Origin: Nanobdellota archaeon
GTDB lineage: Archaea; Nanobdellota; Nanobdellia; Pacearchaeales; GW2011-AR1
Direction: 5' to 3'
Assembly (NCBI GenBank): GCA_013329055.1
Contig: DUKY01000011.1
Span: 16,096-80,095, forward strand
DNA length: 64,000 nt
Below, piece after piece: positions 4,975 through 60,408 of this stretch; the first letter of the stretch is position 1, and every line of letters starts with the position of its first letter. The position numbers and the translations under genes are program-made. The notes under the pieces were generated by a model. That model was not told the origin of the DNA and searched no databases. It worked only from the letters and a program-made list of their open reading frames with translations.

Positions 4975-6387
4975 TTATTTAAAAACCTCCCAATGTCCTC
5001 TACCACCAGTTTGAGGACCTATTCTCTTAATTTTTCCTTCTTGCTTCAATATGTCTATATCTCTCTTTATAGTCTTTTCATTGGCTTTTAGTTGAGACGA
5101 TATCTCAGATATTGCAACTTTATTATTACTTTTTATCATTGCAAGAATATCTTCTCTTCGCTTATCGGGGACATTATCGGGGACATTATCGGGGACATTA
5201 TCCCACTTAGTCTTTAGAGGAAACTCTATTTTATAGAAGGTAATCTCATTCTCAACAATAGGCTCAATTTTATAATAAGACTTCCAGCCATTAAACATCT
5301 TATCAAAACCATAGCCTGCATTTTCAGCAAGTTTGAGTATTCTAAATATTTTTATTAGAATAGGATTTCTCGGAAGAGTAAGTTCTTGTTTTCTTAAAAC
5401 CTCGACAGTAGCTGGCAAACTTCCAGGATTCATAAATTCAAGTCTATCTGAGAATACCCTTACTCTGGGCTTCATTGTGCCAAAATAGTCTGAATGTGCT
5501 AGAAGATTTACTAATGCTTCCCTTATTGCCAAAACTTGAGGTTGATTTTCATCTCTAAAAGCTCCTTTTGTTTTAAATGGAATGTCTATTCTTGTCAGAA
5601 GTCTTTCAAAGATACTAAAGAAGTAGTTGTAAAGATTCTTTTGTAATGGCATTCTATAGGTATATCTTTCAGGAGCATCTGAATAAGATGTCCCCCTTAT
5701 TTCTAAATAATCAATCATAAAATCAGAAAATACCTTACCTATTGAATCTTCATTTCCAAACATTAAAAGTCCCGCAATAGTTACTTTGCCATCAATTGTA
5801 ACTCTTAATTTTTCAAATAATTCTGCTTCGGAAAGATCGCCGTAAGGATTAGCAGAATCAAGATTTTTTATGTAATTCCTAAATCTATCTAGTGTTTCTT
5901 TGTCTAAGTCTTTTAATTTAAATTTTGTTGTTTCTTTGTCTTTAGTTCCAAATGCCGAGTCTCTAAATAATGCATTAAGTTCTTCATAAGTCGCTCTTTG
6001 ATCTCCACTACCTGTTCTTATAAAAGTATTTTTGGGATTATCATAAAAAATAGGCTTGCTCTCTGCAACAGGTATATAAAAAGCAAGAACTGTTTTACTA
6101 TCGAAATTATACTTTTTACATTTAACTTCTAATTTCTTATTAAACTTCTGACCATTTCTTAAGACCCCTATAAAATCTTGTTCTACTTTTTCAGGATTTG
6201 AAACTCCAAGGATAGTGTATTCTTTTCCTTCTTTCTTTACTCCAAAGACAAGCCAGCCTCCAGCAGTATTTGAAAAAGCACTTACAGTCTCCCAGCTATT
6301 TTTTGGAACTTCAGATTTTGCTTCTTTAACCTCAAAGTCTTCCCATTCAATATCCTCTAATTTTTTTATTAATTCTTGTTTGTTCAT
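4975..6387 (-). CDS. AlbA_2/Schlafen-like DNA-binding protein with C-terminal winged-HTH
   Basis: N-terminal EWEDFEVKEAKSE...SAFSNTAGGWLVFGV is typical of the AlbA_2 domain. C-terminal DeoR-like HTH (ISEISSQLKANEKTIKRDIDILKQEGKI). Genes of this kind are frequent passengers in type I R-M loci. Confidence 0.65.
   Translation of the reverse strand: MNKQELIKKLEDIEWEDFEVKEAKSEVPKNSWETVSAFSNTAGGWLVFGVKKEGKEYTILGVSNPEKVEQDFIGVLRNGQKFNKKLEVKCKKYNFDSKTVLAFYIPVAESKPIFYDNPKNTFIRTGSGDQRATYEELNALFRDSAFGTKDKETTKFKLKDLDKETLDRFRNYIKNLDSANPYGDLSEAELFEKLRVTIDGKVTIAGLLMFGNEDSIGKVFSDFMIDYLEIRGTSYSDAPERYTYRMPLQKNLYNYFFSIFERLLTRIDIPFKTKGAFRDENQPQVLAIREALVNLLAHSDYFGTMKPRVRVFSDRLEFMNPGSLPATVEVLRKQELTLPRNPILIKIFRILKLAENAGYGFDKMFNGWKSYYKIEPIVENEITFYKIEFPLKTKWDNVPDNVPDNVPDKRREDILAMIKSNNKVAISEISSQLKANEKTIKRDIDILKQEGKIKRIGPQTGGRGHWEVFK
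5163..5202. repeat. 12-nt tandem repeat x3.3 inside a CDS, encoding (DNVP)3
   Basis: tatcggggacat is repeated back to back. It translates to DNVPDNVPDNVPD on the minus strand. Confidence 0.9.
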
Positions 6388-37772: not shown

Positions 37773-39185
37773 TTATCCCCCACAACTTCCGCTACTTCCT
37801 CCACCACAACCACAACCCCCTGAAGAAGCGGTTTTTGTATTCGCTGTTTTAATTTCTTCTTTTGTCGCAGTACCGTCATCTGTGACTATAAATGTTCCAG
37901 GAATCATTCCCATCCAACAACTCCAAGGGATAACTCCAACTTCAGTTGGAGTAAATTCAATTGTCTGTTTTCCTTTTTGAATTGGGAAATTTAAATTTAA
38001 TTTTGGAACCTGAATTGCATTATTACAATTAGTTATTTCCTGTCCGTCAATAACCCATCTGACAGGAATTCCTTTTTGCAAGACAAATGTATCCGGAGTC
38101 CAACCACTTCCATCAACAGTCATTTCAATTACTTGATATCCTTCTGAATCTATAACAATATTATTAGTTGCACCTGGATTATTAGTTGCTAATAAACTTT
38201 TTACATCATATCCTGAACCAATTAATGAAAACCCTCGGTTTAACATTATTAATCCTAAAATTAAAACAATAATTGCTGAAATTTTTAATATCTTTTTTGT
38301 TGTATTTTTACTTATTACATTCGTTATTCCTCCAAAACCTAACATTACTGGCATTGTTCCAAGTCCAAATGCCATTAAACTTAATCCTCCCTGAATCATA
38401 CTCCCTGTTCCTGCTGCATAAATATACAATGCCTGTAATGGACCGCAAGCAATAAATAGACCATTAAGTAATCCTGTTGTCATTGGTGCAATATAATGAC
38501 CTGAATATTTTTTTGTTGCAATTTTTGTTAAAAATTTTGGATTAAATTGAAATTTTTTAAAAAAAGATATACCAAACATTGATAAAGAATATGCTATCAT
38601 AAATATTCCGGCAAAGATTGCAATTGTTCCTCGTAATTGGGGTGTAAAAAAGAATATACTACCGATTAAACCAAAGAAAGCACCAATAATTGTATAAGAA
38701 ATTGTTTTACTTGTTCCATAAATTAAATGTTGTAAAAAAGATTTATGTCCATTTATTGCATTTTTTGCAGTATATGAAACCATGAATCCTCCGCACATTG
38801 CAATACAATGAAAACCTGTTAAAAGACCTGCGAAAAAGAGTAATAATAATGAAACATTTTCTAATTCATTAAAATTAATCTCTGGTATAGTTAATCCTAA
38901 ATTTTTAAAGAAAATGAATAAAACTGCTAATGTTATTATTGATAATAAACCAATATGCCAGTATATAGTATTTGATTTTTTTACTGTTGTATTTATTTCA
39001 TATCCTAAATCTTTTATAATTTCTTCAATTTTGTTTTCTGAAATTTTATCACTTTCAAAATCAATTTCTGCCTGACCTTTTGCAAAATTAACTGTGATGC
39101 TATTTACTTTATCTTTTAATGCATCTTCAATTTTACTTGCGCAAGAATTGCAATGCATTCCATTAATCTTAAATATTTTTTTCAT
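37773..39185 (-). CDS. HMA-domain / DsbD-TauE-like permease / cupredoxin-like fusion protein
   Basis: N-terminal HMA GMHCNSCASKI, about 6 TM helices with a CIAMCGG motif, a C-terminal beta-rich domain (IPVRWVIDG...CNNAIQVP...WSCWMGM), and a Gly/Cys tail GGCGCGGGSSGSCGG. Confidence 0.65.
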   Translation of the reverse strand: MKKIFKINGMHCNSCASKIEDALKDKVNSITVNFAKGQAEIDFESDKISENKIEEIIKDLGYEINTTVKKSNTIYWHIGLLSIITLAVLFIFFKNLGLTIPEINFNELENVSLLLLFFAGLLTGFHCIAMCGGFMVSYTAKNAINGHKSFLQHLIYGTSKTISYTIIGAFFGLIGSIFFFTPQLRGTIAIFAGIFMIAYSLSMFGISFFKKFQFNPKFLTKIATKKYSGHYIAPMTTGLLNGLFIACGPLQALYIYAAGTGSMIQGGLSLMAFGLGTMPVMLGFGGITNVISKNTTKKILKISAIIVLILGLIMLNRGFSLIGSGYDVKSLLATNNPGATNNIVIDSEGYQVIEMTVDGSGWTPDTFVLQKGIPVRWVIDGQEITNCNNAIQVPKLNLNFPIQKGKQTIEFTPTEVGVIPWSCWMGMIPGTFIVTDDGTATKEEIKTANTKTASSGGCGCGGGSSGSCGG

Positions 39186-39215
39186 ACTTAAATCAGATAA
39201 ATCTTCTTTATATGA

Positions 39216-39233
39216 GCTTTGGAGAAACTAGTT
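39216..39233 (-). promoter_or_regulatory. 18-nt motif abutting a TATA-like box upstream of the HMA-permease gene
   Basis: GCTTTGGAGAAACTAGTT. In gene sense it reads AACTAGTTTCTCCAAAGC, followed by TCATATAAAG. 17 of 18 positions match the copA upstream motif. Confidence 0.4.
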
Positions 39234-39598
39234 TCATGAAAGACACCCGCTGGTTTCTTTCAAACTTCCTCAAATTGCGGAGCGGTGGTATCTTTATGAG
39301 CCTTTGTGGATACCACATAGAATGTGAACCCGTTGGTTCTTTTTGAATCTCCTCGAATACTTGAACGGTGGCATTTATTTGAGCCTTCGTGAATGCCATG
39401 TAGAATGTAACACCCGCTGGTTCCCTTCAACCCTCCTCGAAATCTGGAAGGGTGGCATCTCTAAACTCAAGCCCACACTCGTGTCAAGGGCTATCATGAA
39501 AACTCGTGTAAACTTTCGGAGCCTCCTGTGGATGCCACGTAGAATGTGACACCCGCTGGTTTCCTCGGAAAATTTGTAAAATTAAATTTTCTGGAATT

Positions 39599-39667
39599 CA
39601 GAGATTAAAAATCTCTGAAACTTCAGGAAACCTGAAGTCTTCAAAAGGCGATACTTTTGAAGTTTTT
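39599..39667 (+). other. three consecutive perfect hairpins followed by T5
   Basis: CAGAGAT-TAAAA-ATCTCTG (39599-39617), CTTCAGG-AAA-CCTGAAG (39621-39637) and CTTCAAAAG-GCGATA-CTTTTGAAG (39639-39662), then TTTTT. Confidence 0.5.
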
Positions 39668-39761
39668 AAACTTCCTCAAATTGCGGAGCGGTGGCATTTA
39701 TTTTTTATATAATATAAATGAGTAAATAAAAATTTAAAAATAATTAATACTTGATGAATAG

Positions 39762-40064
39762 ATGGATCCAGAAGTTCAAAAAGTAATTGATTATTTATCG
39801 TCAAAAGAATATATAGAAAAAAGAGATAGGGCAATTTTAGTTTTTAATGAGAGAAATATTGAATGTGATTTAAATGGGCATTTAAATTCGAATATAGAAG
39901 ATAACACTTGTAATTATTGTTATAGAAGATTAGAATATTCTACTTCAAGATATGATTCAGTTACTAATAAACAAAAAAATCTTAGTAATTTTGAAATAGG
40001 ATTACAAAAATTGGAAGATTATTTTAAAGGGATTTCAAAAATATTCAAAGGATTAGATATTTGA
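39762..40064 (+). CDS. small hypothetical protein, paralog 1 (C..H...CxxC)
   Basis: 100 aa. Shared block ECDLNGHLNSNIEDNTCNYCYRRLEYST. Confidence 0.45.
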   Translation: MDPEVQKVIDYLSSKEYIEKRDRAILVFNERNIECDLNGHLNSNIEDNTCNYCYRRLEYSTSRYDSVTNKQKNLSNFEIGLQKLEDYFKGISKIFKGLDI

Positions 40065-41454: not shown

Positions 41455-41818
41455 TTTTAGTTTTATAATCTATTATTGCTTTTTTTAATGCTTTAGTTGC
41501 CATACTTGAACAATGCATTTTAATTGGGGGTAAACCTTTTAATGATTCTGCAAGATTTTCATAGGTTATATTATCTGCTTCTTCAAGAGTTTTTCCCATT
41601 GCAAGTTGAGTTACCATTGAAGAAGTTGCAATTGCTGCTGCACATCCAAAGGTTTTAAATTTAATATCTTCAATTTTATTATCTTTAACTTTGATATGAA
41701 CCTGCATTATATCTCCGCAGGTAGGATTACCAACTTTACCCACTCCGTCGGGATTTTTAAGTTCTCCAATATTTTTTGGATTCATAAATTCTTCCATTAC
41801 TTTTTTTGAATATTGCAT
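41429..41818 (-). CDS. iscU: Fe-S cluster assembly scaffold
   Basis: GNPTCGDIM, FGCAAAIATSS and HCSSMA, the three conserved Cys contexts of IscU/NifU. Confidence 0.9.
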   Translation of the reverse strand: MQYSKKVMEEFMNPKNIGELKNPDGVGKVGNPTCGDIMQVHIKVKDNKIEDIKFKTFGCAAAIATSSMVTQLAMGKTLEEADNITYENLAESLKGLPPIKMHCSSMATKALKKAIIDYKTKSGGKNNGK

Positions 41819-42035
41819 TTTTTGTTTGTTGTTTTTTATTTGTATTATTTAATTCGTTAATTCGTTTTAAAATGCAATGCTAGAAATCTTTTGATTTCTT
41901 TGTATTACATTTTTTGTTTGTTATTTTTGTCGTTGTTTGAGTTTATTTAATTCGTTTAAAATGCAATGCTAGAAAATTTTGAATTTTCTTTGTATTGCAT
42001 TTTTTGTTTGTTACTTTTATCGTTGTTTATTTAAT
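41811..42035. repeat. tandem repeat of about 90 bp (x2.5) that includes the iscU start codon region
   Basis: TATTGCATTTTTTGTTTGTT at 41811 and 41993, and TATTACATTTTTTGTTTGTT at 41903. Each unit carries an imperfect long hairpin (AATGCAATGCTAGAAA ... TTTCTTTGTATTGCATT). Confidence 0.8.
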
Positions 42036-42258: not shown

Positions 42259-43404
42259 TTAATTAATTAATGGACTGAGTCTCCTTAATTTAGTTACGAT
42301 TTTCGGTAATTCTTTTAAGAAGTAATCAACTTCTTCTTCAGTAGTATATTTACTTATACTTATTCTTAATGAACTATTTCCTTCTAAGGGTGTAAGTCCT
42401 ATTGCTTTTAAAACATGACTTGTCTTTAAAGTATTTGACATGCACGCTGATCCTGTTGAAGTTGCAATACCTAAATTTTCTAAGTATCCCCCGATTGCTT
42501 CTCCTTCAATATTCATAAATGAAATATTAATATTGTTGCATAATCGATTATTTCGTGGTCCACTTAATTTTGTATTTGAAATTTTTAATATTCCTTCAAT
42601 TAATTTGTCTCTCATTTCAGTCATTTGTTTTATATCTTTAGATTTTACAATTTCTACTGCTTTTGCAAAACCAATTATCCCTGCCGGATTTTCTGTTCCA
42701 CTTCGAATATTTCTTTCCTGACCTCCACCATGAAGTAAAGGTGTTAACATTATCCCATCTTTAATATATAATGCTCCTACTCCTTTAGGTCCATGAATTT
42801 TATGAGAGTTTAATGTCACCAAATCTAAATTTTGCTTCTTAACATTTAAATCAACTTTTGTATAACTCTGGCAGGCATCAGTATGAAATAAAACATTTTT
42901 TTCTTTACAAATTTTACCAATGGTTTCTAAATCTTGAATTGTTCCAATTTCATTATTTCCGTGTATTACTGACACAAGTATTGTCTTATCTGTAATCGAT
43001 TCTTTTAATTGATTCACGTCAATAAAACCTTCTTTATTTACATCCAGATAAGTTATTTTTGCTCCTTGTTTTTCTAACCAGCTACAAGTTTTTAAAATAC
43101 AATCATGTTCTATTTTTGTTGTGATTATATGATTTTTTTTTGGATAATTATTAAAAAATAATCCTTTTAATGCTAAGTTATTACTTTCTGTTCCTCCGGA
43201 AGTAAAAACAATTTCAGAAGTTTTAGCATTAATTGATTTTGCAATTATTTTTCTTGCTTCTTCAATTGCTTGTTTTGCTTCTTGACCTACAAAATGTTGT
43301 GAAGATGGATTCCCAAATTTTTCAGTTAAATAAGGCATCATAGCTTCAACTACTTTTTCATCGGTTTTTGTTGTAGCAGCGTTATCAAAATATACTAATT
43401 TCAT
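42259..43404 (-). CDS. iscS: cysteine desulfurase (IscS/NifS class)
   Basis: PLP-lysine context SHKIHGPKG, active-site Cys loop STGSACMS, N-terminal YFDNAATT. Confidence 0.92.
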   Translation of the reverse strand: MKLVYFDNAATTKTDEKVVEAMMPYLTEKFGNPSSQHFVGQEAKQAIEEARKIIAKSINAKTSEIVFTSGGTESNNLALKGLFFNNYPKKNHIITTKIEHDCILKTCSWLEKQGAKITYLDVNKEGFIDVNQLKESITDKTILVSVIHGNNEIGTIQDLETIGKICKEKNVLFHTDACQSYTKVDLNVKKQNLDLVTLNSHKIHGPKGVGALYIKDGIMLTPLLHGGGQERNIRSGTENPAGIIGFAKAVEIVKSKDIKQMTEMRDKLIEGILKISNTKLSGPRNNRLCNNINISFMNIEGEAIGGYLENLGIATSTGSACMSNTLKTSHVLKAIGLTPLEGNSSLRISISKYTTEEEVDYFLKELPKIVTKLRRLSPLIN

Positions 43405-43556
43405 ATTGTTTCCTCATTATTTTGAAATTTATATGCTTGAGAATTGGTAAAATTCTCATTGTATACTAATTTCATTTTTGTTTCCTCATTATTGAAATTT
43501 GTATGCTTGAGAATCTGTGATTCTCATTGTATACTAATTTCATATTGTTTCCTTTG
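43391..43556. repeat. tandem repeat of 68-71 bp (x2.4) containing the iscS promoter-like region, RBS and start codon
   Basis: TATACTAATTTCAT at 43391, 43462 and 43530. Each unit contains the palindrome GAGAAT-N-ATTCTC and a TATA-like GCATATAAAT (in gene sense). Confidence 0.85.
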
Positions 43557-48366: not shown

Positions 48367-48459
48367 GCACGTTTGATATTAAATAATCTTTTAAAGATTT
48401 ATATTTAAGAAAACATTATAAACATATATTCTTTTTTATATATTATGAAGTTCCAAATT

Positions 48460-48539
48460 CCATGTGGTATCCCAGGAGGCTCAGAAAAGATGCCACCCTT
48501 CAGTACTTTGAGGAGGGTCAAAGGGAACCAGGGGGTTCC
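48460..48539 (+). other. solo inverted copy of the 39.2-39.7 kb GC-rich repeat, directly upstream of a start codon
   Basis: The reverse complement matches the unit blocks (GAGCCTCCTGGGATACCACATG; CCCTCCTCAAAGTACTGAAGGGTGGCATC; CTGGTTCCC). Hairpins: ACCCTTC/GGAGGGT (48495-48518) and GGAACC/GGTTCC (48524-48539). Confidence 0.7.
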
Positions 48540-48545
48540 TTTTAA

Positions 48546-49481
48546 ATGAAGCACAATCTAAAGATAACATTCATTCTTTTAGCAATGTTTATCTTAACGC
48601 AATTTATAGGACTTTATGTTGTGAGTTATTATTCTCCTGTTAAAATTATAGAAGGAGAAATTCAAAATGTAACAGAACCAAAAATATTGCCCTTTGGAAT
48701 GGATTCACCGAAAGTAGAAAAAGAATCAGATTATTACAATTTTTTTTCTTCAATAATAATATCGTTTATAATAGCAATTTTATTATTAACATTTTTAACA
48801 AAATTTAAAGCAGAATTCATCCTCAAATTATGGTTTTTTATTGTAGTTATGATTGCACTGGGTATTTCATTAAAGACAATTCTTCCTGATATAAAATACA
48901 TAACATTAATTTCATTAATTATTGTTCTGCCTTTAGCATATATTAAGATTTATCAAAGAAATTTCTTAGTTCATAATTTAACTGAATTATTTATTTATCC
49001 GGGAATTGCAGCAGTTTTTGTCCCGATTCTAAACATTTATACAATCATTGCATTATTAATTGCAATTTCAATTTATGACATGTGGGCAGTTTGGCATTCA
49101 GGAATAATGCAAAAAATGGCAAAATATCAAATTAATGAATTAAAGATATTCTCAGGATTTTTTATACCATATGCATCAAAAAAAGTAAAGCTGCAAATTC
49201 AAAAGATAAAAGAATCAAAAAAGAAATTAGGTAAAAAAATCAAAGTTAATGTAGCAATTTTAGGAGGAGGGGATATAATTTTCCCAATAATTACATCAGG
49301 AGTGATGCTAAAAACATTAGGGTTTATTCCGGCAATATTTGTAATAATTGGAGCAACAATAGGATTAAGTTATTTATTCTTCTTCGCAAAAAAGAAAAAA
49401 TTCTATCCTGCAATGCCATTTATTACTGCAGGAATATTCTTAGGGATTATTATAGGATATTTATTTGATAAATTTATATAA
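48546..49481 (+). CDS. presenilin/signal-peptide-peptidase-type intramembrane aspartyl protease homolog
   Basis: Polytopic protein with YD (SIYDMWAV), GxGD (LGGGDIIFP) and a PAL-like YPAMPF, in the canonical order. Confidence 0.7.
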   Translation: MKHNLKITFILLAMFILTQFIGLYVVSYYSPVKIIEGEIQNVTEPKILPFGMDSPKVEKESDYYNFFSSIIISFIIAILLLTFLTKFKAEFILKLWFFIVVMIALGISLKTILPDIKYITLISLIIVLPLAYIKIYQRNFLVHNLTELFIYPGIAAVFVPILNIYTIIALLIAISIYDMWAVWHSGIMQKMAKYQINELKIFSGFFIPYASKKVKLQIQKIKESKKKLGKKIKVNVAILGGGDIIFPIITSGVMLKTLGFIPAIFVIIGATIGLSYLFFFAKKKKFYPAMPFITAGIFLGIIIGYLFDKFI

Positions 49482-49935
49482 TTTACCATTTATTACTGCA
49501 GGAATTCCAACAAAACTTTTAATATAAGGCGAGTGAAGACGAGCAGAAGTTTTGTGGCACCAAAATTTTTTATAAAAATTTTTAGTGTTCTTAGGAATTA
49601 TTATAGGATATTTATTTGATAAATTTATATAATTTACCATTTATTACTGCAGGAATACCGACAAAACTTTTAATATAAGGCGAGTGAAGACAAGCAGGAA
49701 GTTTTGTGGCACCAAAATTTTTTATAAAAATTTTTAGTGTTCTTAGGAATTATTATAGGATATTTATTTGATAAATTCATCTAACTTGCCATTTATTATT
49801 GCAGGAATTCCAACAAAACTTTTAATATAAGGCGAGTGAAGACGAGCAGAAGTTTTGTGGCACCAAAATTTTTTATAAAAATTTTTAGTGTTCTTAGGAA
49901 TTATTATAGGATATTTATTTGATAAATTCATCTAA
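49482..49935. repeat. three tandem units of 151-152 bp, each a copy of the last ~58 nt of ORF 48546-49481 interrupted by an 82-nt insert
   Basis: Units are 49482-49632, 49633-49784 and 49785-49935. The flanks match 49424-49481. The insert carries a CCAACAAAACTT/AAGTTTTGTGG stem and an AT-rich palindrome. Confidence 0.85.
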
Positions 49936-53788: not shown

Positions 53789-56700
53789 TTAATCTTTTCT
53801 TAAATAAATTAAATAATAAATTCCAAGAATCAACAAAATAGTAATTATTAAATTGTAAAATCCAAAAAATGGAAGCTGTATTTTTGCAGGGCAAGAAATA
53901 GCATTAGAACCCCCAACACAAACTCTGGATAACTTAAGAGGATCATAATAATAAAGCCCATTTTGTAAAAAGTAATTATCAATATTATTTGACGGACCAT
54001 CATTAAAATCTGCATATCCATTATCAGCTCCCCAAGACCAGATAGTTGTCCATGAATATTCTAAAAATCCATCCTCACAATTATCATTAGAACTTTCAGA
54101 ATAAGAACAAAGACCAATAATTGGAGTTGATCCACAATCTAAACCAGGTATAAATTCCCAAGTATATGAACAAGCATTCAAAATATCATCCCATACACAT
54201 TTGCACTGCATTAAATAATTACATAAACCAGACACTAAAATCTCATCACCACATCGTGTATTATTCCAAACTTCAGGATAAGCCTTAAACACTTTTTCAT
54301 TCACATTATTTTCTGCAGCATTGCAACCAAAATTATCACAACTATTACAAGAAAGTTTATTTTCATAATCTTTGCATTCTGCAGTTGAATCTTGAACTAA
54401 AACAGTTAATTTACCACTTTCATATCCATTAATTTTAAAATAAAATCCATCATAATCATTAGTTTTTGCATAATCTTCTTCGGTAATTGTCCATTCACCA
54501 ATAATAATTCCCCAACCAACATTGCTAAATGTTCCAGAGATAGCATTTGAACCTGTTCGAATTTCATCATCAAAAACAGAATCATCTTCAAAGATTTCAA
54601 AATTAAATGAACCATTTAATATCCCGGTATTATTAAGCACTAACTTAACTGTTTCACCGATATAGGCTTCAGTTATTCTTAATCCATTAGAGTCAACAAA
54701 ATAAGCTTCTGGTTGAAGAATGCAAACATTTGAACAACCATCGCCATTAATTAAATTTTTATCATCACATTCTTCTGGAGATTCCTTAATACCATTACCA
54801 CAATTATTAGAAGTATTAACTAAATCACAAGAAAGATTATTTGAAGAATAGGATGAAATATCTGTAGTTAATGTTGGAATAAATAATTCATTAGTATTTC
54901 CAGTGCCTAATTGTCCATCATCATTTAATCCCCAGCATAAAATACGGGTATCATTTAATCTCGTTCCACAAGAATAATAACTTCCTGCACTTATTTGAAT
55001 ATATGCAGATATATCTGAAGTCAATGTTGGTTTATTTAAATTTGTAAAACCTCCATTTCCAAGTTCTCCATCTCCACCGTCTCCCCAACATAAAACTCTT
55101 GAGTCATTTGCTCGAATTCCACAAGAATGATAATCTCCAGTAGCAATTTTTTTATAAGCCGAAGTATCTGTTGTTAAAGTTGGAATTAAATTATCTTCTG
55201 TTTCACCATCCCCTAATTGTCCTTCACCACCATATCCCCAGCATAACACTCTTGAATCATTTTTTCTAATTCCGCAAGTATGACCATCAGAATAAATAGA
55301 TTTATATTCAGATGTATCAGTTGTAACATTTGGATTTAATTGAACAATTAAAGTTCGCCCATCTCCTAATTGCCCTTCACCACCATATCCCCAGCATAAC
55401 ACTCTTGAATCATTTTTTCTGATTCCACACGTATAATAATCACCAGCACTAATACTTTTATAAGCAGAAGTATCATTAATTAATGTTGGATTTCCTAAAT
55501 TTGAAAATCCCCCATTTCCAAGTTGTCCAAAATTACTATATCCCCAACATAAAACTCTTGAGTCATTAGCACGAATACCACAAACATGATTATAATCACC
55601 AACACTTACAGCAAGATATGCAGAGGAATCAGTTGTTAATGTTGGATTCATAACATTATGCCCATCAATATCACCATCTCCTAAAGCACCATACTTTCCA
55701 TAACCCCAGCATAATACTCTTCTATCACTTGTTCGAATTCCACAAGTCTGATAACCTCTAGCACTTACACTAATATATCCAGAAATATCAGAAGTTGTAT
55801 ATGGACTAAGTCTATCAAGTATATTTTGTCCATCTCCAAGTTGTCCATATACTGAATTACCCCAGCATAAAACCCTTGAATCATTTTTTCTAATACCACA
55901 AGTATGAGACCATCCTGCTGAAATTTTAATGTCATCACAAGAAGCACTAAAATTAAAAACTTCAATAATACAACTAGCTGAACAGCCATCACCATTAACT
56001 AAATTTTTATCATCACATTGTTCAGAACCTTCTTTTATACCATCACCGCAAACAGCAATAGAAACAGAAGGACAAAAATTTTCTGAAACATTATATCCTG
56101 AAGAATCAATGGTTACATTAGGATTTAATGACATATGATCCATAATTATACCATCTCCTAATTGTCCATAAAGAGATCTTCCCCAACATAATACTCTTCC
56201 ATCAATAAATCGAGTAGCACAACTATGATATAATCCTACACTAACCTGAGTATATCCTGAAGCCTCACTTATTAATTTAGGATTTCCGGTATCTAATGTG
56301 CCACCATTTCCTAACACACCATATTCCCCTCTACCCCAACATAATATACGACTGTCATTTGCACGAATTCCACAAGTATGATACCTATAAGGACTAATTT
56401 GTTTATATTCAGATGTATCTGTTGTTAAAGTAGGATTTCGAGCAAGATGTTCAATAGTAATTCCATCCCCTAAAATTCCAAATATTCCCCTTCCCCAACA
56501 CAAAACACGACTATCATTTGCACGAATTCCGCAAGTAGAATAAAATCCGGCATTTACTTGTTTATACGCACTTTTATCTGTTGTAACATTTGGATTAGGA
56601 TTACTAATAAAACTATTTTGTCCATTTCCTAATTTTGCATTTTCCATATCTCCCCAACATAATACTCTTGAGTCATTTGCACGAATTCCACAAGTATAAA

Positions 56701-58540
56701 TCCATCCTGCACTTATACTTGAATAAGCTGAAGTATCTGTTGTTAATGTTGGTACTGCTTTAAAACCACCAACAGTTCCATTTCCTAACTGTCCATAATC
56801 ATTAAGCCCCCAACATAATACTCTGGAATCACTTGCTCTAATTCCACAAGTATGGTCTAATCCTGTACTTATACTTAAATAAGCTGAAGAATCAACAGTT
56901 AAATTTGGATTTCCTACATTATGATTTCCAAGAATTCCATCTCCTAATGCCCCAGAATTTCCAGACCCCCAACATAATACCCTTGAGTCATTTGCACGAA
57001 TTCCACAAGTATGAAATCCTCCTGTACTTATACTTAAATATGGTGAAACATCAGTTGTAAGATTTGGACTAAATGTTTTATGATTTGACGTAATACCATC
57101 CCCTAAAATACCATACCATCCATATCCCCAACATAAAACACGAGAATCATTTGCACGAATTCCACAAGTCTGATAACTTCCTGCTGAAAGTTTAAAATAA
57201 TCACAGGAATTAAAAACTTCATGCATACAAGTCGAAGAACAACCATCACTATTGATTAAATTCCCATCATCACATTCTTCACCACCAGTAATAATACCAT
57301 CACCGCAAGAATTAGAAATACAACTAAAACCACAAGTTTCATCAGTAGAATAACCAGAGGGGTCAATAATCAAATTCGGGGATAAAACTTTATGAACAAC
57401 AATTGACCCATCTCCCAATTGTCCATCATTGCCTTCTCCCCAACATAATACCTTTGAATCATTCGTTCGAATACCGCAAGAATGTTGTGCACCAGTTGTT
57501 AAAATAGTATATGAAAAAACATCAGTTGTTAATGTTGGAACAGATTTATCCGCAGTTCCACCATTACCTAATTGCCCTAAAAATCCATAACCCCAACATA
57601 ATACACGAGAATCACTTTTTCTAATTACACAATTATGTGAAAAACCTGAATTTAAATCTCGACTTGCCGATGAATCTTGAGTCAAAGTTGGATTTCCAAC
57701 ACTATGATCAGAAGCAATTCCATCACCTAATCTCCCGCTAATTCCTCTTCCCCAACATAATACACGAGAATCGCTTGTTCTAATACCACAAGTATGAAAT
57801 GCTCCAGTACTAATTTCACTATACATCGAAGAATCAGTAGTCAATATCGGATTTGGAACATTATGTACATTTGTGTTTCCATCACCCAATTTTCCATAAT
57901 CCCCTCTTCCCCAACATAATACTCTTGAATCATTTGCTCGAATACCACAAGTAAAATCACTAATAGTATCAAGACTTTTATACGCAGAAGTATCATTAAT
58001 TAAATTAGGAATTAATATAGAATGTATTAATACATTCCCATCCCCAAGCATGCCATATACACCTTCTCCCCAGCACAATACTCTTGAATCATTTGCTCGA
58101 ATACCACAAGTATGATACCCTCCTGCACTTATACTGCTATATGCTGATGAATCAGAGATTAATGTTGGAATTAAATTATCTCCTGTACTTCCATCACCTA
58201 ATTGCCCTAAATTCCCTTCACCCCAACAAAGAACTCTTGAATCATTTTTCCTAATACCACAAGTATGAAGATTACCAGAACTTACACTAACATATACCGA
58301 TAAATCTGTAGTTAATGTTGGAACTGAATTATAACCTGTTCCCCCATCACCTAATTGTCCAGAACTACCCCTCCCCCAACATAAAACCCTTGAGTCATTA
58401 GCTCGAATACCACAAGTATGATATTGACCTCCGGAAATCTTAGAATAATCACAAGAAATTAAAGTAGAACAAGAATCAGCACTAATAAATAAAATATTAA
58501 TCAATAACAAAAAAAATAAAATAAACAAACCTCTTTTCAT
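53789..58540 (-). CDS. giant surface protein: signal peptide, 3 x 7 RCC1-like blades separated by Cys-rich CxxGxxExxEECDDxN repeats, shared C-terminal module, C-terminal TM anchor
   Basis: 21 occurrences of the (R/K)(V/I)LCWG-x4-G-x-LG-x-G blade signature with HTCGIR strands. Three CG(D/N)GI...(E/Q)CDD(G/K)NL(I/V)N(G/S)DGCS..C repeats. C-terminal QLPFFGFYNLIITILLILGIYYLIYLRKD. Confidence 0.8.
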   Translation of the reverse strand: MKRGLFILFFLLLINILFISADSCSTLISCDYSKISGGQYHTCGIRANDSRVLCWGRGSSGQLGDGGTGYNSVPTLTTDLSVYVSVSSGNLHTCGIRKNDSRVLCWGEGNLGQLGDGSTGDNLIPTLISDSSAYSSISAGGYHTCGIRANDSRVLCWGEGVYGMLGDGNVLIHSILIPNLINDTSAYKSLDTISDFTCGIRANDSRVLCWGRGDYGKLGDGNTNVHNVPNPILTTDSSMYSEISTGAFHTCGIRTSDSRVLCWGRGISGRLGDGIASDHSVGNPTLTQDSSASRDLNSGFSHNCVIRKSDSRVLCWGYGFLGQLGNGGTADKSVPTLTTDVFSYTILTTGAQHSCGIRTNDSKVLCWGEGNDGQLGDGSIVVHKVLSPNLIIDPSGYSTDETCGFSCISNSCGDGIITGGEECDDGNLINSDGCSSTCMHEVFNSCDYFKLSAGSYQTCGIRANDSRVLCWGYGWYGILGDGITSNHKTFSPNLTTDVSPYLSISTGGFHTCGIRANDSRVLCWGSGNSGALGDGILGNHNVGNPNLTVDSSAYLSISTGLDHTCGIRASDSRVLCWGLNDYGQLGNGTVGGFKAVPTLTTDTSAYSSISAGWIYTCGIRANDSRVLCWGDMENAKLGNGQNSFISNPNPNVTTDKSAYKQVNAGFYSTCGIRANDSRVLCWGRGIFGILGDGITIEHLARNPTLTTDTSEYKQISPYRYHTCGIRANDSRILCWGRGEYGVLGNGGTLDTGNPKLISEASGYTQVSVGLYHSCATRFIDGRVLCWGRSLYGQLGDGIIMDHMSLNPNVTIDSSGYNVSENFCPSVSIAVCGDGIKEGSEQCDDKNLVNGDGCSASCIIEVFNFSASCDDIKISAGWSHTCGIRKNDSRVLCWGNSVYGQLGDGQNILDRLSPYTTSDISGYISVSARGYQTCGIRTSDRRVLCWGYGKYGALGDGDIDGHNVMNPTLTTDSSAYLAVSVGDYNHVCGIRANDSRVLCWGYSNFGQLGNGGFSNLGNPTLINDTSAYKSISAGDYYTCGIRKNDSRVLCWGYGGEGQLGDGRTLIVQLNPNVTTDTSEYKSIYSDGHTCGIRKNDSRVLCWGYGGEGQLGDGETEDNLIPTLTTDTSAYKKIATGDYHSCGIRANDSRVLCWGDGGDGELGNGGFTNLNKPTLTSDISAYIQISAGSYYSCGTRLNDTRILCWGLNDDGQLGTGNTNELFIPTLTTDISSYSSNNLSCDLVNTSNNCGNGIKESPEECDDKNLINGDGCSNVCILQPEAYFVDSNGLRITEAYIGETVKLVLNNTGILNGSFNFEIFEDDSVFDDEIRTGSNAISGTFSNVGWGIIIGEWTITEEDYAKTNDYDGFYFKINGYESGKLTVLVQDSTAECKDYENKLSCNSCDNFGCNAAENNVNEKVFKAYPEVWNNTRCGDEILVSGLCNYLMQCKCVWDDILNACSYTWEFIPGLDCGSTPIIGLCSYSESSNDNCEDGFLEYSWTTIWSWGADNGYADFNDGPSNNIDNYFLQNGLYYYDPLKLSRVCVGGSNAISCPAKIQLPFFGFYNLIITILLILGIYYLIYLRKD

Positions 58541-58575: not shown

Positions 58576-60408
58576 TTAATCTTTTCTTAGAGAAATTAAT
58601 GAATAAATTCCAACAATTAAGAATATGGTAATTATTAAATTGTAAAATCCAAAAAATGGAAGTTGTATTTCGGCAGGACAAGGGATAATGTTTGAACCAC
58701 CGACGCATCTTTGGGATAATTTAAATGGATCATAATAATAAAGTCCATTTTCTAAAATATAATCAGCGACTTCATCAGAAGGACCATTACTATATATTGC
58801 ATATCCATTATCAGTCCCCCAAGCCCAAGTAGTTGTCCAGGAATATTCTAAAAATCCATCGTTACAATTATCAACAGTACTCTCACCATATTTACAACTA
58901 CCAACTGTTGGAATACTGCTATCTGTATCACAATCAAGTCCTGGAGAAGAACTCCAAGTATAATCACATTTACTTGTTGAAGAATTCCAAATGCATTTGC
59001 ATAACATTAAATATGAACATGAAGGATCAGGACCTGCGATTTCATCGCCACATTTAGTATCATTCCAAACATCAGGAAATGCTTCAAAGACTTTTTCATT
59101 AACGCTATTTTCTGCAGCATCACAACCAATATAATCACAATCATTACAACTTACTTCAGATTCATAATTTGAACACCAAGGAGTAACATCTTGAACTAAA
59201 ATTTCTAATCTGTTACTTTCATATCCATTAATTTTAAAATAAAAATCATCATAATCACCTATTTCAGTAATGGAGTAATCTTGTTCAGTTATTGTCCATT
59301 CGCCAATAATAATTCCCCAACCGACATTACTAAATGTTCCGGGAATAGCATTTATACCTGTCCGAATTTCATCATCAAAAGCAGGATCTTCCTCAAGAAT
59401 TTCAAAACTAAATGAACCATTTAAAATTCCGGTATTATTGAATACTAACTTAACAGTTTCACCAATATGAGCTTCAGTTATTTTTAATCCATTAGAATCT
59501 AAAAAATAAGCTTCAGGTTGAAGAACACAAGCATTTGAACAACCATCGCCATTAAATAAATTTTTATCATCACATTCTTCATAGCTCTTAAACCAAATTC
59601 CATCCCCGCAATAACTACTCTTATAAGTTTCAATTTCACAAATATTTGAACAACCATCAAATGAAATTAAATTACCATCATCACAATTTTCAGAACCAAT
59701 AAACAAAATACTATCCCCACAATAACTACTTGAATAAGTTTCTATATTACAAGTCGATGAACAGCTATCAAAATTAATTAAATTTCCGTCATCACACTCT
59801 TCAGAACCGACAAATAAAATATTATCACCACAATAATCATCATCATAAGTTTCTGTTAAACAAGTAGAAGAACAACCATCAAAAGAAATTTTATTACCAT
59901 CATCACAAGTTTCAAAAGACGGAAAAATAACATTATCCCCGCAATAATTACTTGAATAAGTTTCAGTTTTACAAGTTGATGAACAACTATCACCGGATTT
60001 AGTATTACCGTCGTCACATTCTTCAGGACCTTCTTTTAAACTATCACCACAAACAGAACAAGATGTTGAACATCCAGCAATACTATTTGGACTACAAGCT
60101 TGTGTACAACCACTACCAGCACAATAAAAATAATCAGTATAAGTTGTATATGAACCACTTGAAACGCAATTACCTTCATAACCTCCAGGTGTACCACCCC
60201 CTTGAGATGGAGAACATCCCCAACAACTTACACAGGTTCCACCACAACAGCAATTACCACAAGATAAAATAACACAACAACCAGTATACCAACCTGTACC
60301 AGTAACAGTCATTTTTTCATAAGTACCATAATCAACACAAGTATCAGCATTAATAAATAAAACATTAATTAATAATAAACCAAAAATAAGAAACACACAT
60401 CTTTTCAT
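58576..60408 (-). CDS. surface protein paralog: Cys/Gly-rich N-domain, 5 Cys-rich repeats, shared C-terminal module and anchor
   Basis: Signal peptide, then repeated YCGD(N/S)ILF.GSE.CDDGNLI.FD.CS..C units. The C-terminal ~310 aa are collinear with the other three paralogs. Confidence 0.75.
   Translation of the reverse strand: MKRCVFLIFGLLLINVLFINADTCVDYGTYEKMTVTGTGWYTGCCVILSCGNCCCGGTCVSCWGCSPSQGGGTPGGYEGNCVSSGSYTTYTDYFYCAGSGCTQACSPNSIAGCSTSCSVCGDSLKEGPEECDDGNTKSGDSCSSTCKTETYSSNYCGDNVIFPSFETCDDGNKISFDGCSSTCLTETYDDDYCGDNILFVGSEECDDGNLINFDSCSSTCNIETYSSSYCGDSILFIGSENCDDGNLISFDGCSNICEIETYKSSYCGDGIWFKSYEECDDKNLFNGDGCSNACVLQPEAYFLDSNGLKITEAHIGETVKLVFNNTGILNGSFSFEILEEDPAFDDEIRTGINAIPGTFSNVGWGIIIGEWTITEQDYSITEIGDYDDFYFKINGYESNRLEILVQDVTPWCSNYESEVSCNDCDYIGCDAAENSVNEKVFEAFPDVWNDTKCGDEIAGPDPSCSYLMLCKCIWNSSTSKCDYTWSSSPGLDCDTDSSIPTVGSCKYGESTVDNCNDGFLEYSWTTTWAWGTDNGYAIYSNGPSDEVADYILENGLYYYDPFKLSQRCVGGSNIIPCPAEIQLPFFGFYNLIITIFLIVGIYSLISLRKD

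Follow-up and report, generated by a model that had tools for sequence, protein, structure and literature searches.

A probable structured RNA family of DPANN archaea, found singly at gene starts and in tandem arrays

Intergenic repeats of bacteria such as REP/BIME, Correia/CREE of Neisseria, RUP/BOX, ERIC and MIRU are short (40-150 nt), multi-copy and hairpin-forming, are often tandem and co-transcribed with their neighbours, vary in copy number between strains, and can be terminators, stabilisers or promoters. Here we analyse an archaeal element that is likewise short, multi-copy, intergenic and hairpin-forming. It is about 80 nt long and GC-rich, and occurs in a 64,000-nt stretch of a Nanobdellota archaeon (assembly GCA_013329055.1, contig DUKY01000011.1, positions 16,096 to 80,095; hereafter the window) as a four-unit head-to-tail array at 39237-39697 on the minus strand and as a solo copy at 48464-48544 on the plus strand. 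Both had been pointed out in an earlier note made from the sequence of the window. We find that the copies belong to one family with a common fold, follow placement rules and are conserved at orthologous genes. Unlike the bacterial repeats, to which it is unrelated in sequence, the element lacks inverted repeats at its ends and does not form a simple palindrome; it combines a pseudoknot with a purine strand that covaries in mirror fashion with one of its stems, has a fixed polarity with only the 3' end abutting genes, and is retained at the same genes between orthologues with as little as 60% protein identity. Mycobacterial MIRU carry small open reading frames (ORFs) with stops overlapping gene starts, as does the element at the loci of a gene for a 184-aa protein.

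A second comparison is offered by the CsrB/RsmZ RNAs and the CsrA sites, where, as here, a motif is found singly at many start codons and in tandem in stand-alone, terminator-ended RNAs, and where a GGA motif lies in a hairpin loop. Unlike in the Csr system, the repeated unit is a whole 80-nt fold, the hosts are archaeal, and clustering of the neighbouring genes gives no CsrA-like partner; the analogy is functional only. In its topology the element resembles SAM-II, preQ1-II, the telomerase RNA pseudoknot and ENE/MALAT1, with the loop of a 3' hairpin pairing with an upstream segment and a linker that follows the long stem in its groove. Covariation between the linker and the base pairs of the stem is shared with H-type pseudoknots with triples, and the end of the U-tract is held in a stem, as in 3'-end-protecting triple helices. 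The known H-type cases use U.A-U (pyrimidine-motif) triples, whereas the covariation of the element, which is the only evidence here, is of the type G=G and A=A with an antiparallel third strand (purine motif). Further differences are a pseudoknot stem of only 2 bp, the lack of a coherent regulon, and an alternative helix that explains part of the signal.

Ribosome-binding sites bridged by a hairpin are known from phage T4 genes 38 and 25, in which a Shine-Dalgarno (SD) sequence more than 20 nt upstream is brought to the AUG by the intervening hairpin. The element has a like arrangement, judged by sequence only, with GAGGAGR 3 nt before a 24-nt hairpin and an AUG 1-3 nt after it; bridging of the T4 type does not cover its first hairpin, its pseudoknot, its arrays or its tRNA contexts. 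In type III toxin-antitoxin systems the ToxI and CptI repeats, with units of 34-45 nt, are followed by a terminator and then a gene, always that of a ToxN/CptN-type endoribonuclease. These antitoxin RNAs are tandem direct repeats of pseudoknotted units with a triplex core (PMC4627078), and tandem pseudoknotted RNA units, in the element with a putative triplex core, are what the two have in common. Its units are ~83 nt long, and housekeeping genes, tRNAs or nothing follow downstream, with no ToxN-like gene. We therefore rejected an assignment to type III systems: the gene after the window array encodes an HMA-DsbD_2-cupredoxin protein, and other arrays end at convergent genes.

A family specific to DPANN archaea

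The window shows its archaeal origin by its FttA/aCPSF1 gene and has a GC content of 28%. In it, the conserved blocks given in the earlier note are confined to 39.2-39.7 kb (minus-strand sense) and 48.46-48.54 kb (plus strand). The GC content of 39200-39600 is 0.41-0.47, against a mean of 0.283, in agreement with the GC-rich character noticed earlier. Tandem Repeats Finder reports a repeat of period 83 and 2.6 copies at 39243-39460, and a covariance model built from related copies matches the same places, so that the description as a tandem array of ~85-nt elements with a solo copy is borne out. The matches comprise the solo copy at 48462-48548 (+; 95.8 bits, E ~1e-19) and, on the minus strand, unit 4 at 39233-39318 (94.9 bits), unit 3 at 39319-39401 (72.9 bits), unit 2 at 39402-39540 (50.7 bits) and, weakly, the truncated unit 1 at 39638-39720. 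The array thus stands, but not the boundaries first proposed for it (units from 39214, 39298, 39381 and 39519), since the natural units run from GTGGYAT to TTTYA. What had been taken for a unit at 39214 is the end of the last unit together with the TATA box CATATAAA of the HMA gene, and the two "unique spacers" of ~60 and ~100 nt are in fact insertions within units 2 and 1, which recur in other genomes.

To define the family, we scanned the degenerate pattern CCACC-N11-13-GAGGAR-N9-11-AACCANNGGGT in three collections (species genomes, metagenome contigs and viral contigs). The scan of one genome per species gave 51 loci, 21 of them in eight metagenome-assembled genomes (MAGs) of DPANN archaea (Nanoarchaeia, Pacearchaeota, Woesearchaeota), often several per MAG; the remaining loci are single matches in GC-rich bacteria and look like chance. 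At least 99 loci were found in metagenome contigs, mostly from groundwater and sediment, and the viral contigs gave only two chance matches (L001 and L002; loci outside the window carry the prefix L). A covariance model with 27 complete copies as seed yielded 47 cmsearch matches at E<0.01 in the window and the 21 genome loci, and at least 134 matches at E<1e-6, with 108 distinct sequences, in the window and the at least 99 metagenome loci. The MAG SMAG_U8054 alone has at least 28 units in ten 8-kb pieces. The search pattern fixes CCACC, GAGGAR, AACCA and GGGT partly by ascertainment, many copies are recently duplicated, so that the shuffle statistics given below overstate independence, and the gene calls are ORF-based and approximate.

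The Rfam scan also proposed earlier returned no known family over the array or the solo copy: with Rfam 15 at the gathering score the whole window gave no match, at E<=10 only noise below 25 bits was seen over the array and the solo copy, and three other copies gave only noise at E<=5. ARAGORN detected no tRNA or tmRNA gene in the window, and in related loci the tRNAs adjoin the element and are not inside it. A full-text literature search yielded no description of the element. With a large family, strong covariation (see below) and nothing in Rfam 15, the suggestion of a novel cis-regulatory or small-RNA family is favoured, and we consider it very likely that this is a genuine, previously undescribed structured RNA family. 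It is specific to DPANN archaea of the class Nanoarchaeia (relatives of Woesearchaeota and Pacearchaeota).

Several other assignments were tried and rejected. The array is not a CRISPR array, as its units are contiguous 83-nt repeats and the apparent spacers are intra-unit insertions seen elsewhere. The defining features of C/D-box and tRNA-like RNAs are absent. VIPR vrRNAs contain 9-16 tandem YNNGG pentanucleotide units and a conserved tail (bioRxiv 10.64898/2026.04.26.720920), and not even two consecutive YNNGG units occur in the array or the solo copy on either strand.

The array is not an assembly artefact, a possibility that the earlier note had raised. An independent contig (L108) is 100% identical over the solo copy, and two syntenic relatives with 92-97% identity, the 257-kb metagenome contig L129 and L049 of MAG SMAG_U8054 ("Nanoarchaeia"), both contain the array, with 2 units each compared with 4 in the window.

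Fold, covariation and the copies in the window

RNAalifold predicts two hairpins, P1 and P3, from the 27 seeds (Numbering below 100 refers to the 86 positions of the model). P1 has 8 bp (3-10 with 27-34, GUGGYAUC/GAURCCAC), while the 10 bp of P3 (58-67 with 72-81) join an A-run and GAACC to GGUUC and a run of four or five U, followed by the conserved A82. A pseudoknot of 2 bp joins bases 70-71 of the tetraloop of P3 (A-R-N'-G) to bases 35-36, which come directly 3' of P1. In the 108 distinct sequences, standard pairs occupy 94.0% of the cells, compared with 44-55% when the partners are slid, and 12 of the 20 pairs have changed on both sides (5 of 8 in P1 and 6 of 10 in P3). None of 500 shuffles matches the observed covariation, and the seeds agree, so that the lack of covariation once considered as a possible outcome does not apply. 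The P1 and P3 counts depend in part on a model-fitted alignment; the pseudoknot pair lay outside the search model, and its second pair is CG in 40 sequences, GC in 37, UA in 4, AU, GU and UG in one each, and another combination in 18.

We also aligned 87 non-redundant full-length copies with a hidden Markov model. In this set P1 pair 7-30 is CG 30 times, UA 24, UG 31 and CA once, and the GTGGYAT/ATGCCAC pairing proposed earlier corresponds to P1. G.U occurs in 65 cells and A.C in 20. This asymmetry indicates selection on an RNA, or at least single-stranded, fold of the element strand and not on duplex DNA; together with the covarying pair between loop and linker, it disfavours repeated duplex-DNA protein-binding sites, one of the candidates of the earlier note. 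The 7-bp stem ACCCTTC/GGAGGGT, also proposed there, is present in few copies only and is not conserved. Its GGAGG strand appears to act instead as a third strand or alternative partner of P3, a hairpin that the note did not contain. No covariation was detected for a pseudoknot between GRAGG of the P1 loop and the CUUC after P1. The helix sequences vary freely, whereas the single-stranded CCACC, UU, GAGGA, AACCA and GGGU are fixed, which is partly imposed by the search pattern. Single-sequence folding gives z = -3.65 for the array and an uninformative z = -0.83 for the solo copy.

A mutual-information scan reveals a second type of dependence. The two positions that close GAGGAGR, 53 and 54, carry the same bases as positions 63 and 62 in the purine strand of P3: 53 and 63 are GG in 57 copies and AA in 27, with three exceptions, and 54 and 62 are GG in 50 and AA in 35, with zero exceptions. 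All four purine combinations are seen, each mirror-consistent, and 169 of 174 cells agree (none of 10000 shuffles is as high; the opposite register gives 59). Since 63-76 and 62-77 are Watson-Crick pairs and the linker of an H-type pseudoknot must descend the P3 groove antiparallel to the P3 purine strand, the arrangement can be compared with G.G-C and A.A-U (purine-motif) triples, whose geometry is that of an antiparallel purine third strand. The mirror covariation fits base triples of this kind. A rival helix, GGAGR (50-54) with YUUUU (77-81), which displaces the lower half of P3, also explains the correlation of 54, 62 and 77; triples are required only by that of 53, 63 and 76, behind which lie about two or three independent changes. 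A second alternative pairing, CACCN (32-36) with N'GGGUG (70-75), is available in the third of copies with G75, and the RNA may switch between conformations.

Optional insertions occur at two places: a single hairpin in the P1 loop and, in the stretch from the purine strand to P3, two to four hairpins rich in AT. The helices of the AT-rich insertions show compensatory change (CAGAAAAUUU/AAAUUUUCUG versus CAGAGAAUUU/AAAUUCUCUG), and the insertions behave like variable domains of a structured RNA.

Coding capacity was considered and rejected for both strands. A small sense ORF (MPPF..RR..NQRV) with an SD sequence has ATA or ATT starts in ~30% of copies (the "start" is ATA in 9 of 20 gene-abutting copies), is affected by 1-nt indels and meets in-frame stops after 6 to 39 codons; its "synonymous" CCN position is the pseudoknot pair. 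The antisense ORF is open in many copies, and forms an upstream ORF (uORF) at the 184-aa gene loci, but its frame is not conserved across the family. No 3-nt periodicity of variation was found, and each frame of either strand is interrupted in some copies.

In the solo copy, P1 is formed by GTGGTATC (48464-48471) and GATGCCAC (48489-48496), as supported by RNAalifold and pair counts, and encloses a 17-nt loop with GGAGGC. CC at 48497-48498, just 3' of P1, pairs with GG at 48532-48533 in the P3 loop, forming the pseudoknot according to the pair counts. The SD-like purine strand GAGGAGGG (48510-48517) mirrors that of P3 and may be either the third strand of base triples or a partner with which the U-tract pairs instead. 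P3, a terminator-like hairpin with a U-tract, consists of AAAGGGAACC (48520-48529), the loop AGGG and GGTTCCTTTT (48534-48543), followed by the conserved A48544. One nucleotide separates this A from the ATG (48546) of the presenilin-like gene, which belongs to the Pfam family SPP. The earlier note was right about a solo copy before this gene, but had it end 6 nt from the ATG.

The four units of the array, all on the minus strand, differ in completeness. Unit 1 (39539-39697) is 5'-truncated: it begins with ATGCCACC at 39697, has no 5' strand of P1, and contains an AT-rich insertion of ~100 nt with several hairpins (39671-39567) between the purine strand and P3. The internal unit 2 (39400-39538) pairs GTGGCATC (39538-39531) with GATGCCAC (39459-39452) in P1, has a ~55-nt insertion in the P1 loop, and carries GGGTGTTACATTC in place of the 3' strand of P3, leaving it with no U-tract. 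Unit 3 (39317-39399; 83 nt), also internal, likewise lacks the U-tract and ends in GGGTTCACATTCTAT. Unit 4 (39237-39316), terminal and complete, has a P1 of GTGGTATC and GATACCAC, with a compensatory U-A where the other units have C-G, and a P3 ending in GGGTGTCTTTC followed by A39237. In the lineage of the window the U-tract is absent from the internal units and present only in the last one. The insertion type of unit 1 is found also in L129 (there in the solo-copy orthologue, too), L049, L030 and L019, and the P1-loop insertion of unit 2 in L036 and L026; the solo-copy orthologue in L129 has a 56-nt insertion absent from the window copy.

The insertion modules themselves, AAAACTTCAAAAG..CTTTTGAAG and CAGARAATTT..AAATTYTCTG, are AT-rich and multi-hairpin (39567-39671 in the window and ~10030-10090 in L129). 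Their presence varies between otherwise orthologous element copies of close strains, which suggests rapid modular gain and loss.

Placement and surroundings

To examine the placement of the element, we grouped the matches into 118 arrays, 78 of which are non-redundant and have a complete last unit. At 20 of these 78 loci, an ORF on the same strand, 60 aa or more in length, has its start codon after the conserved A, at a distance of 0 in one case, +1 in 13, +2 in 3, +3 in one and +6 in 2; a start codon is expected by chance in the 0 to +6 range at 3-7% of positions. At least 3 loci have a tRNA 5' end at +1 by ARAGORN, and L051 and L115 apparently have a further, intron-containing tRNA after the element; tRNAs of related loci start 1-2 nt after the conserved A. 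The stop codon of a convergent gene follows at 18 loci, at -2 in 11 (the TTA of the element's own end) and at +1 to +3 in 7. Three loci are at a contig end and 34 are in other contexts. The 3' end of the element therefore lies at a gene boundary in at least 41 of the 78 loci, and on its 5' side the next gene is ~20-800 nt away.

The genes abutted at their start encode, by Pfam, SPP, ATP-dependent DNA ligase, MCM, SMC, an Mre11-like phosphoesterase, a HerA-like ATPase, the ribosomal proteins S3Ae and L10e, an MMR_HSR1+TGS GTPase and a TFIIS-type zinc-ribbon protein (TFS). FttA/aCPSF1 was identified by homology to the Pfam-confirmed FttA that the window encodes, and SRP54 by reading the sequence. 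All copies of the window are oriented toward the downstream gene, as stated in the earlier note, and its two downstream genes had suggested a link with membrane proteins. Family-wide this link does not hold: the classes of downstream genes, which the note had proposed to check, include DNA ligase, MCM, SMC, ribosomal proteins, tRNAs and other housekeeping genes.

These positions are conserved between distant orthologues. SPP of the window is 66% identical in amino-acid sequence to SPP of L061, and the element is at +2 in both; it is also kept at a GTPase pair with 60% identity, at three FttA genes with 70-83% and at three S3Ae genes with 66-72%. The linkage between element and gene is thus old, and the random positions that would point to a selfish repeat are not what is found.

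Array size is related to context. There are 58 loci with one unit, 15 with 2, 6 with 3, 4 with 4, 2 with 5 and one with 9. Single units prevail at start-abutting loci (16 of 20) and arrays at convergent-stop loci (13 of 18; Fisher p=0.003). In 70 of the 78 terminal units P3 is followed by a T-run, of four T in 42 loci, five in 26 and six in 2. Clustering of the neighbouring genes groups only orthologous loci, with no recurrent gene beside arrays, no transposase, no ToxN-like gene and no Csr-type partner.

In L033, L057, L112, L119 and L061 the same gene, by eye proteasome beta subunit-like, lies upstream on the same strand, and the gene following the element differs, being FttA, Mre11-like or SPP. 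Genes of the same orientation can thus flank the element on both sides.

Most of the 54 window genes follow one promoter rule, TTTAWAAA at -29 to -22 and AAA at -34 to -32 from the ATG, and only 12 of the 54 have an SD-like 4-mer. The fixed spacing from TATA to ATG, together with the few SD sequences, implies that most mRNAs should be leaderless. A weight matrix derived from this one genome (window genes) places the predicted start at the ATG for 68 of 281 genes of the related element-bearing loci, with a sharp peak. The SPP gene has no TATA of its own, but GGTCAAAG instead. By the genome's promoter rule, a canonical TATA, TTTATATA (48435-48442, +), lies upstream of the solo copy and would put the start of transcription at G48464, where P1 begins; L129 has the same TATA-to-P1 arrangement at the solo-copy orthologue.

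The gene downstream of the array encodes the HMA-DsbD_2-cupredoxin membrane protein (37773-39185, -; by Pfam). Its TATA CATATAAA (39207-39214, -), at -29 to -22 from the ATG at 39185, fits the same rule and lies between array and gene, as in L129 and L049. The array is therefore probably a separate unit and not the leader of the HMA gene, to whose upstream region the earlier note had assigned it. A TATA-like box, TTTATATT (39711-39718, -), is present upstream of the array in the divergent intergenic region; transcripts from it would begin within the truncated unit 1, a few bases from its edge. Divergent from the array is a cysteine-rich 100-aa ORF (39762-40064, +) with a weak PLATZ-like zinc-finger match below the Pfam cut-off, which is kept beside the array in L129 and L049.

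Other repeats of the window include a 151-nt tandem repeat (49437-49935; 3.3 copies, 95% identity) that begins within the last ~45 nt of the SPP gene and is identical in contig L108. Its unit contains the end of the SPP coding sequence, the promoter-like TTTTAATATAAGG, the GC-rich GGCGAGTGAAGACGAGC and a hairpin with a T-run, TTTTGTGGCACCAAAATTTTTT, and may be a repeated small transcription unit. Two AT-rich tandem repeats, 41811-42035 (period 90, 2.5 copies, 82% matches) and 43391-43553 (period 70, 2.3 copies, 87% matches), lie in or beside minus-strand ORFs. Long degenerate tandem repeats with 70-76% matches at 55023-58423 and 59526-59992 (periods 153/159 nt and 111 nt) presumably correspond to domains reiterated within large ORFs of the minus strand. 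Finally, a perfect 12-nt tandem repeat, TTATCGGGGACA, occurs in 3.4 copies at 5162-5202.

Possible roles of the element

Our preferred reading, which we hold tentatively, is that the module is a 5' leader and transcript-end cassette in otherwise leaderless genomes. Transcription, termination, the recruitment of ribosomes and any trans-acting partner are here inferred. The module would be read on the strand facing the abutting gene, and transcription of a solo copy would begin at a promoter upstream of it and continue into the gene or tRNA starting 1-3 nt later. A U-tract is an archaeal termination signal, and that of the element could act as a leaky terminator (attenuator). Read-through transcripts would be translatable, with the P3 hairpin placing GGAGG at SD distance from the AUG, and a gene that had lost its leaderless promoter could still be translated by means of this hairpin-bridged GGAGG. 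A tandem array would be a stand-alone multi-module RNA that ends at the hairpin and U-tract of the last unit, and the same hairpin, read on the other strand, would also terminate the convergent gene.

A number of observations weigh against this reading, in which the element strand, the transcript ends and termination are deduced from sequence. In 59 first units, no promoter recurs at a constant distance before P1; a fixed promoter was therefore rejected as a general feature, being true for the window solo copy and its orthologue but giving no peak family-wide. The tight 3' abutment is also found at convergent stops, where a role as ribosome-binding site does not arise, and because of this spacing alone is no proof of a bridged SD sequence. 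If the purine strand is locked in triples, it would be unavailable to 16S rRNA. U-tract length does not differ between the context classes, and internal units of some Pacearchaeota arrays, as in L028, retain T-runs. A terminator right before essential genes calls for an explanation, and a leader/terminator mechanism gives P1 and the pseudoknot no role.

A further point of this kind is that at no fewer than eight loci (L008 at 1680-1870, L031, L054, L076, L077, L102, L118 and L142, at least) a conserved gene for a 184-aa protein (MITYNDIYEAARKERYSEQLQ..., no Pfam match) has an antisense copy of the element in its 5' region; orientation toward the affected gene is therefore not universal. Here the element is flanked by a direct duplication of the first ~32 nt of the gene and by the inverted repeat CGAAGCTGC/GCAGCTTCG. 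The duplicated flanks are identical or nearly so within each examined genome, and different between genomes. An antisense uORF of 44-56 codons begins with the duplicated codons and reads through the element, and its final TGA overlaps the real start codon in 5 of 7 cases, as ATGA or, once, TTGA. At L008, the one locus inspected further upstream, the start of the uORF overlaps the stop of the upstream gene. The arrangement looks like a translational relay that accommodates the element.

The element might instead be a factor-binding RNA module of the Csr/Rsm kind, a possibility to which we give some weight although we think it unlikely. A protein or ribosome would recognise the fold, solo copies in leaders would bring diverse housekeeping genes and tRNAs under its regulation, and arrays would titrate the factor as sponges. 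The elaborate, conserved tertiary fold exceeds what a terminator needs, and the placement of solo copies at gene starts and of arrays as stand-alone units (p=0.003) would be accounted for, as would the GGA-containing motif in the P1 loop, the fixed single-stranded bases among variable helices, and the fast shift in array size between strains (4 versus 2 units). However, neighbour clustering yields no candidate partner protein, part of the fixed bases is imposed by the search pattern, and the exact ending at start codons, stop codons and tRNA ends is left unexplained.

Rather unlikely, in our view, is a selfish repeat of the type of MITEs (miniature transposable elements with inverted repeats), REP or PATE that spreads in intergenic DNA, with hairpins that serve its own mobility and are merely tolerated by the host. 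Its copy number (at least the 28 units of SMAG_U8054), the tandem arrays of 1-9 units, the gain and loss of units and insertion of modules between 92-97% identical strains, and the 32-nt duplicated flanks at the 184-aa gene loci are all in line with such an origin, and a census of MITEs lists a Woesearchaeal genome among the most MITE-dense archaea (PMC11602168). The MITE-like repeat considered in the earlier note is nevertheless disfavoured, as the ends GTGGYAT... and ...GGTTCTTTTTA are not complementary, the inverted repeats being internal hairpins, and ordinary copies have no target-site duplications, the flanks at the 184-aa loci being the exception. Position and exact spacing are kept at orthologues down to 60% protein identity, and the element persists in small, deletion-prone genomes with no transposase associated with it in the neighbour clustering. 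Compensatory changes, the loop-linker pair and the tolerance of G.U point to a selected RNA fold.

The abutment of genes could also arise at the DNA level, by a terminator-promoter cassette in which GAGGAG-NTTCAAAAR is a BRE (transcription factor B recognition element)/TATA signal, leaderless transcription starts right after the conserved A, and the fold belongs to the terminated upstream transcript. This would account for an ATG or tRNA directly after the conserved A (+1), the host genomes are leaderless, and tRNAs begin 1-2 nt past this base; leaderless tRNA transcription is known in Nanoarchaeum equitans. The median matrix score at start positions 83-85 is 5.0, real promoters reaching 4.1 and the 95th percentile of random scores being 2.4 (first matrix version), and the best scores of a 73-nt scan fall at +1/+2. 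At the commonest (+1) spacing, however, the predicted start is 1-2 nt inside the ATG, and copies at gene starts and at convergent stops score equally. Copies with GGTCAAAGGG or GGTTGAAGGG, which have no TATA-like box, still abut genes (SPP of the window, and those of L073 and L114, whose HerA-like protein is 99% identical to its L043 orthologue, where the copy has TTCAAAAG), and for the solo copy of the window the canonical TATA lies upstream of the element. Pseudoknot, G.U asymmetry and mirror covariation would be unexplained, and overall we find this cassette distinctly unlikely.

A ligand-sensing riboswitch or attenuator, with the pseudoknot and groove triples as an aptamer like those of SAM-II or preQ1-II that controls termination at the U-tract or access to the start codon, is improbable. 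A pseudoknot-plus-triplex would sit directly on a terminator-like hairpin and a start codon, and the sequence allows two pairings that exclude each other (CACCN with N'GGGUG and GGAGR with YUUUU), but the downstream genes have no common metabolic theme, arrays of up to 9 units and the 18 of 78 loci facing convergent gene ends are atypical, as are ~30 copies in a ~1-Mb genome. About as improbable is a processing signal or self-cleaving RNA whose cutting after the conserved 3' A would yield mRNAs without leaders and tRNAs with mature 5' ends: one and the same junction is seen before ATG (+1 in 13 of 20) and tRNAs (+1 or +2), leaderless translation requires a 5'-terminal AUG and the core is complex and conserved, but there is no similarity to any Rfam ribozyme model, we know of no small ribozyme that cuts at its own 3' edge without downstream sequence, and convergent-stop copies and arrays would have no need of cleavage.

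A bolder proposal, which we rate as quite unlikely, would make the module the recognition unit of a new archaeal post-transcriptional control system. A purine-motif triple-helix pseudoknot would mark a regulon of replication, repair, transcription, translation and tRNA genes, would be bound or cut at the 3' A by a dedicated factor or by itself, and the arrays would be decoys. If this were true and cleavage occurs, leaderless mRNAs and the mature 5' ends of tRNAs would both come from one mechanism.

The genomes of the symbiotic DPANN archaea are tiny, and hardly any regulatory RNA has been described from them. An element at the start codons of MCM, DNA ligase, SMC, FttA and ribosomal protein genes, and at tRNAs, would give a first handle on the control or insulation of their core genes. 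It would bear on leader translation in otherwise leaderless systems and on whether natural RNAs use purine-motif base triples, and the covariance model is ready for the annotation of DPANN genomes.

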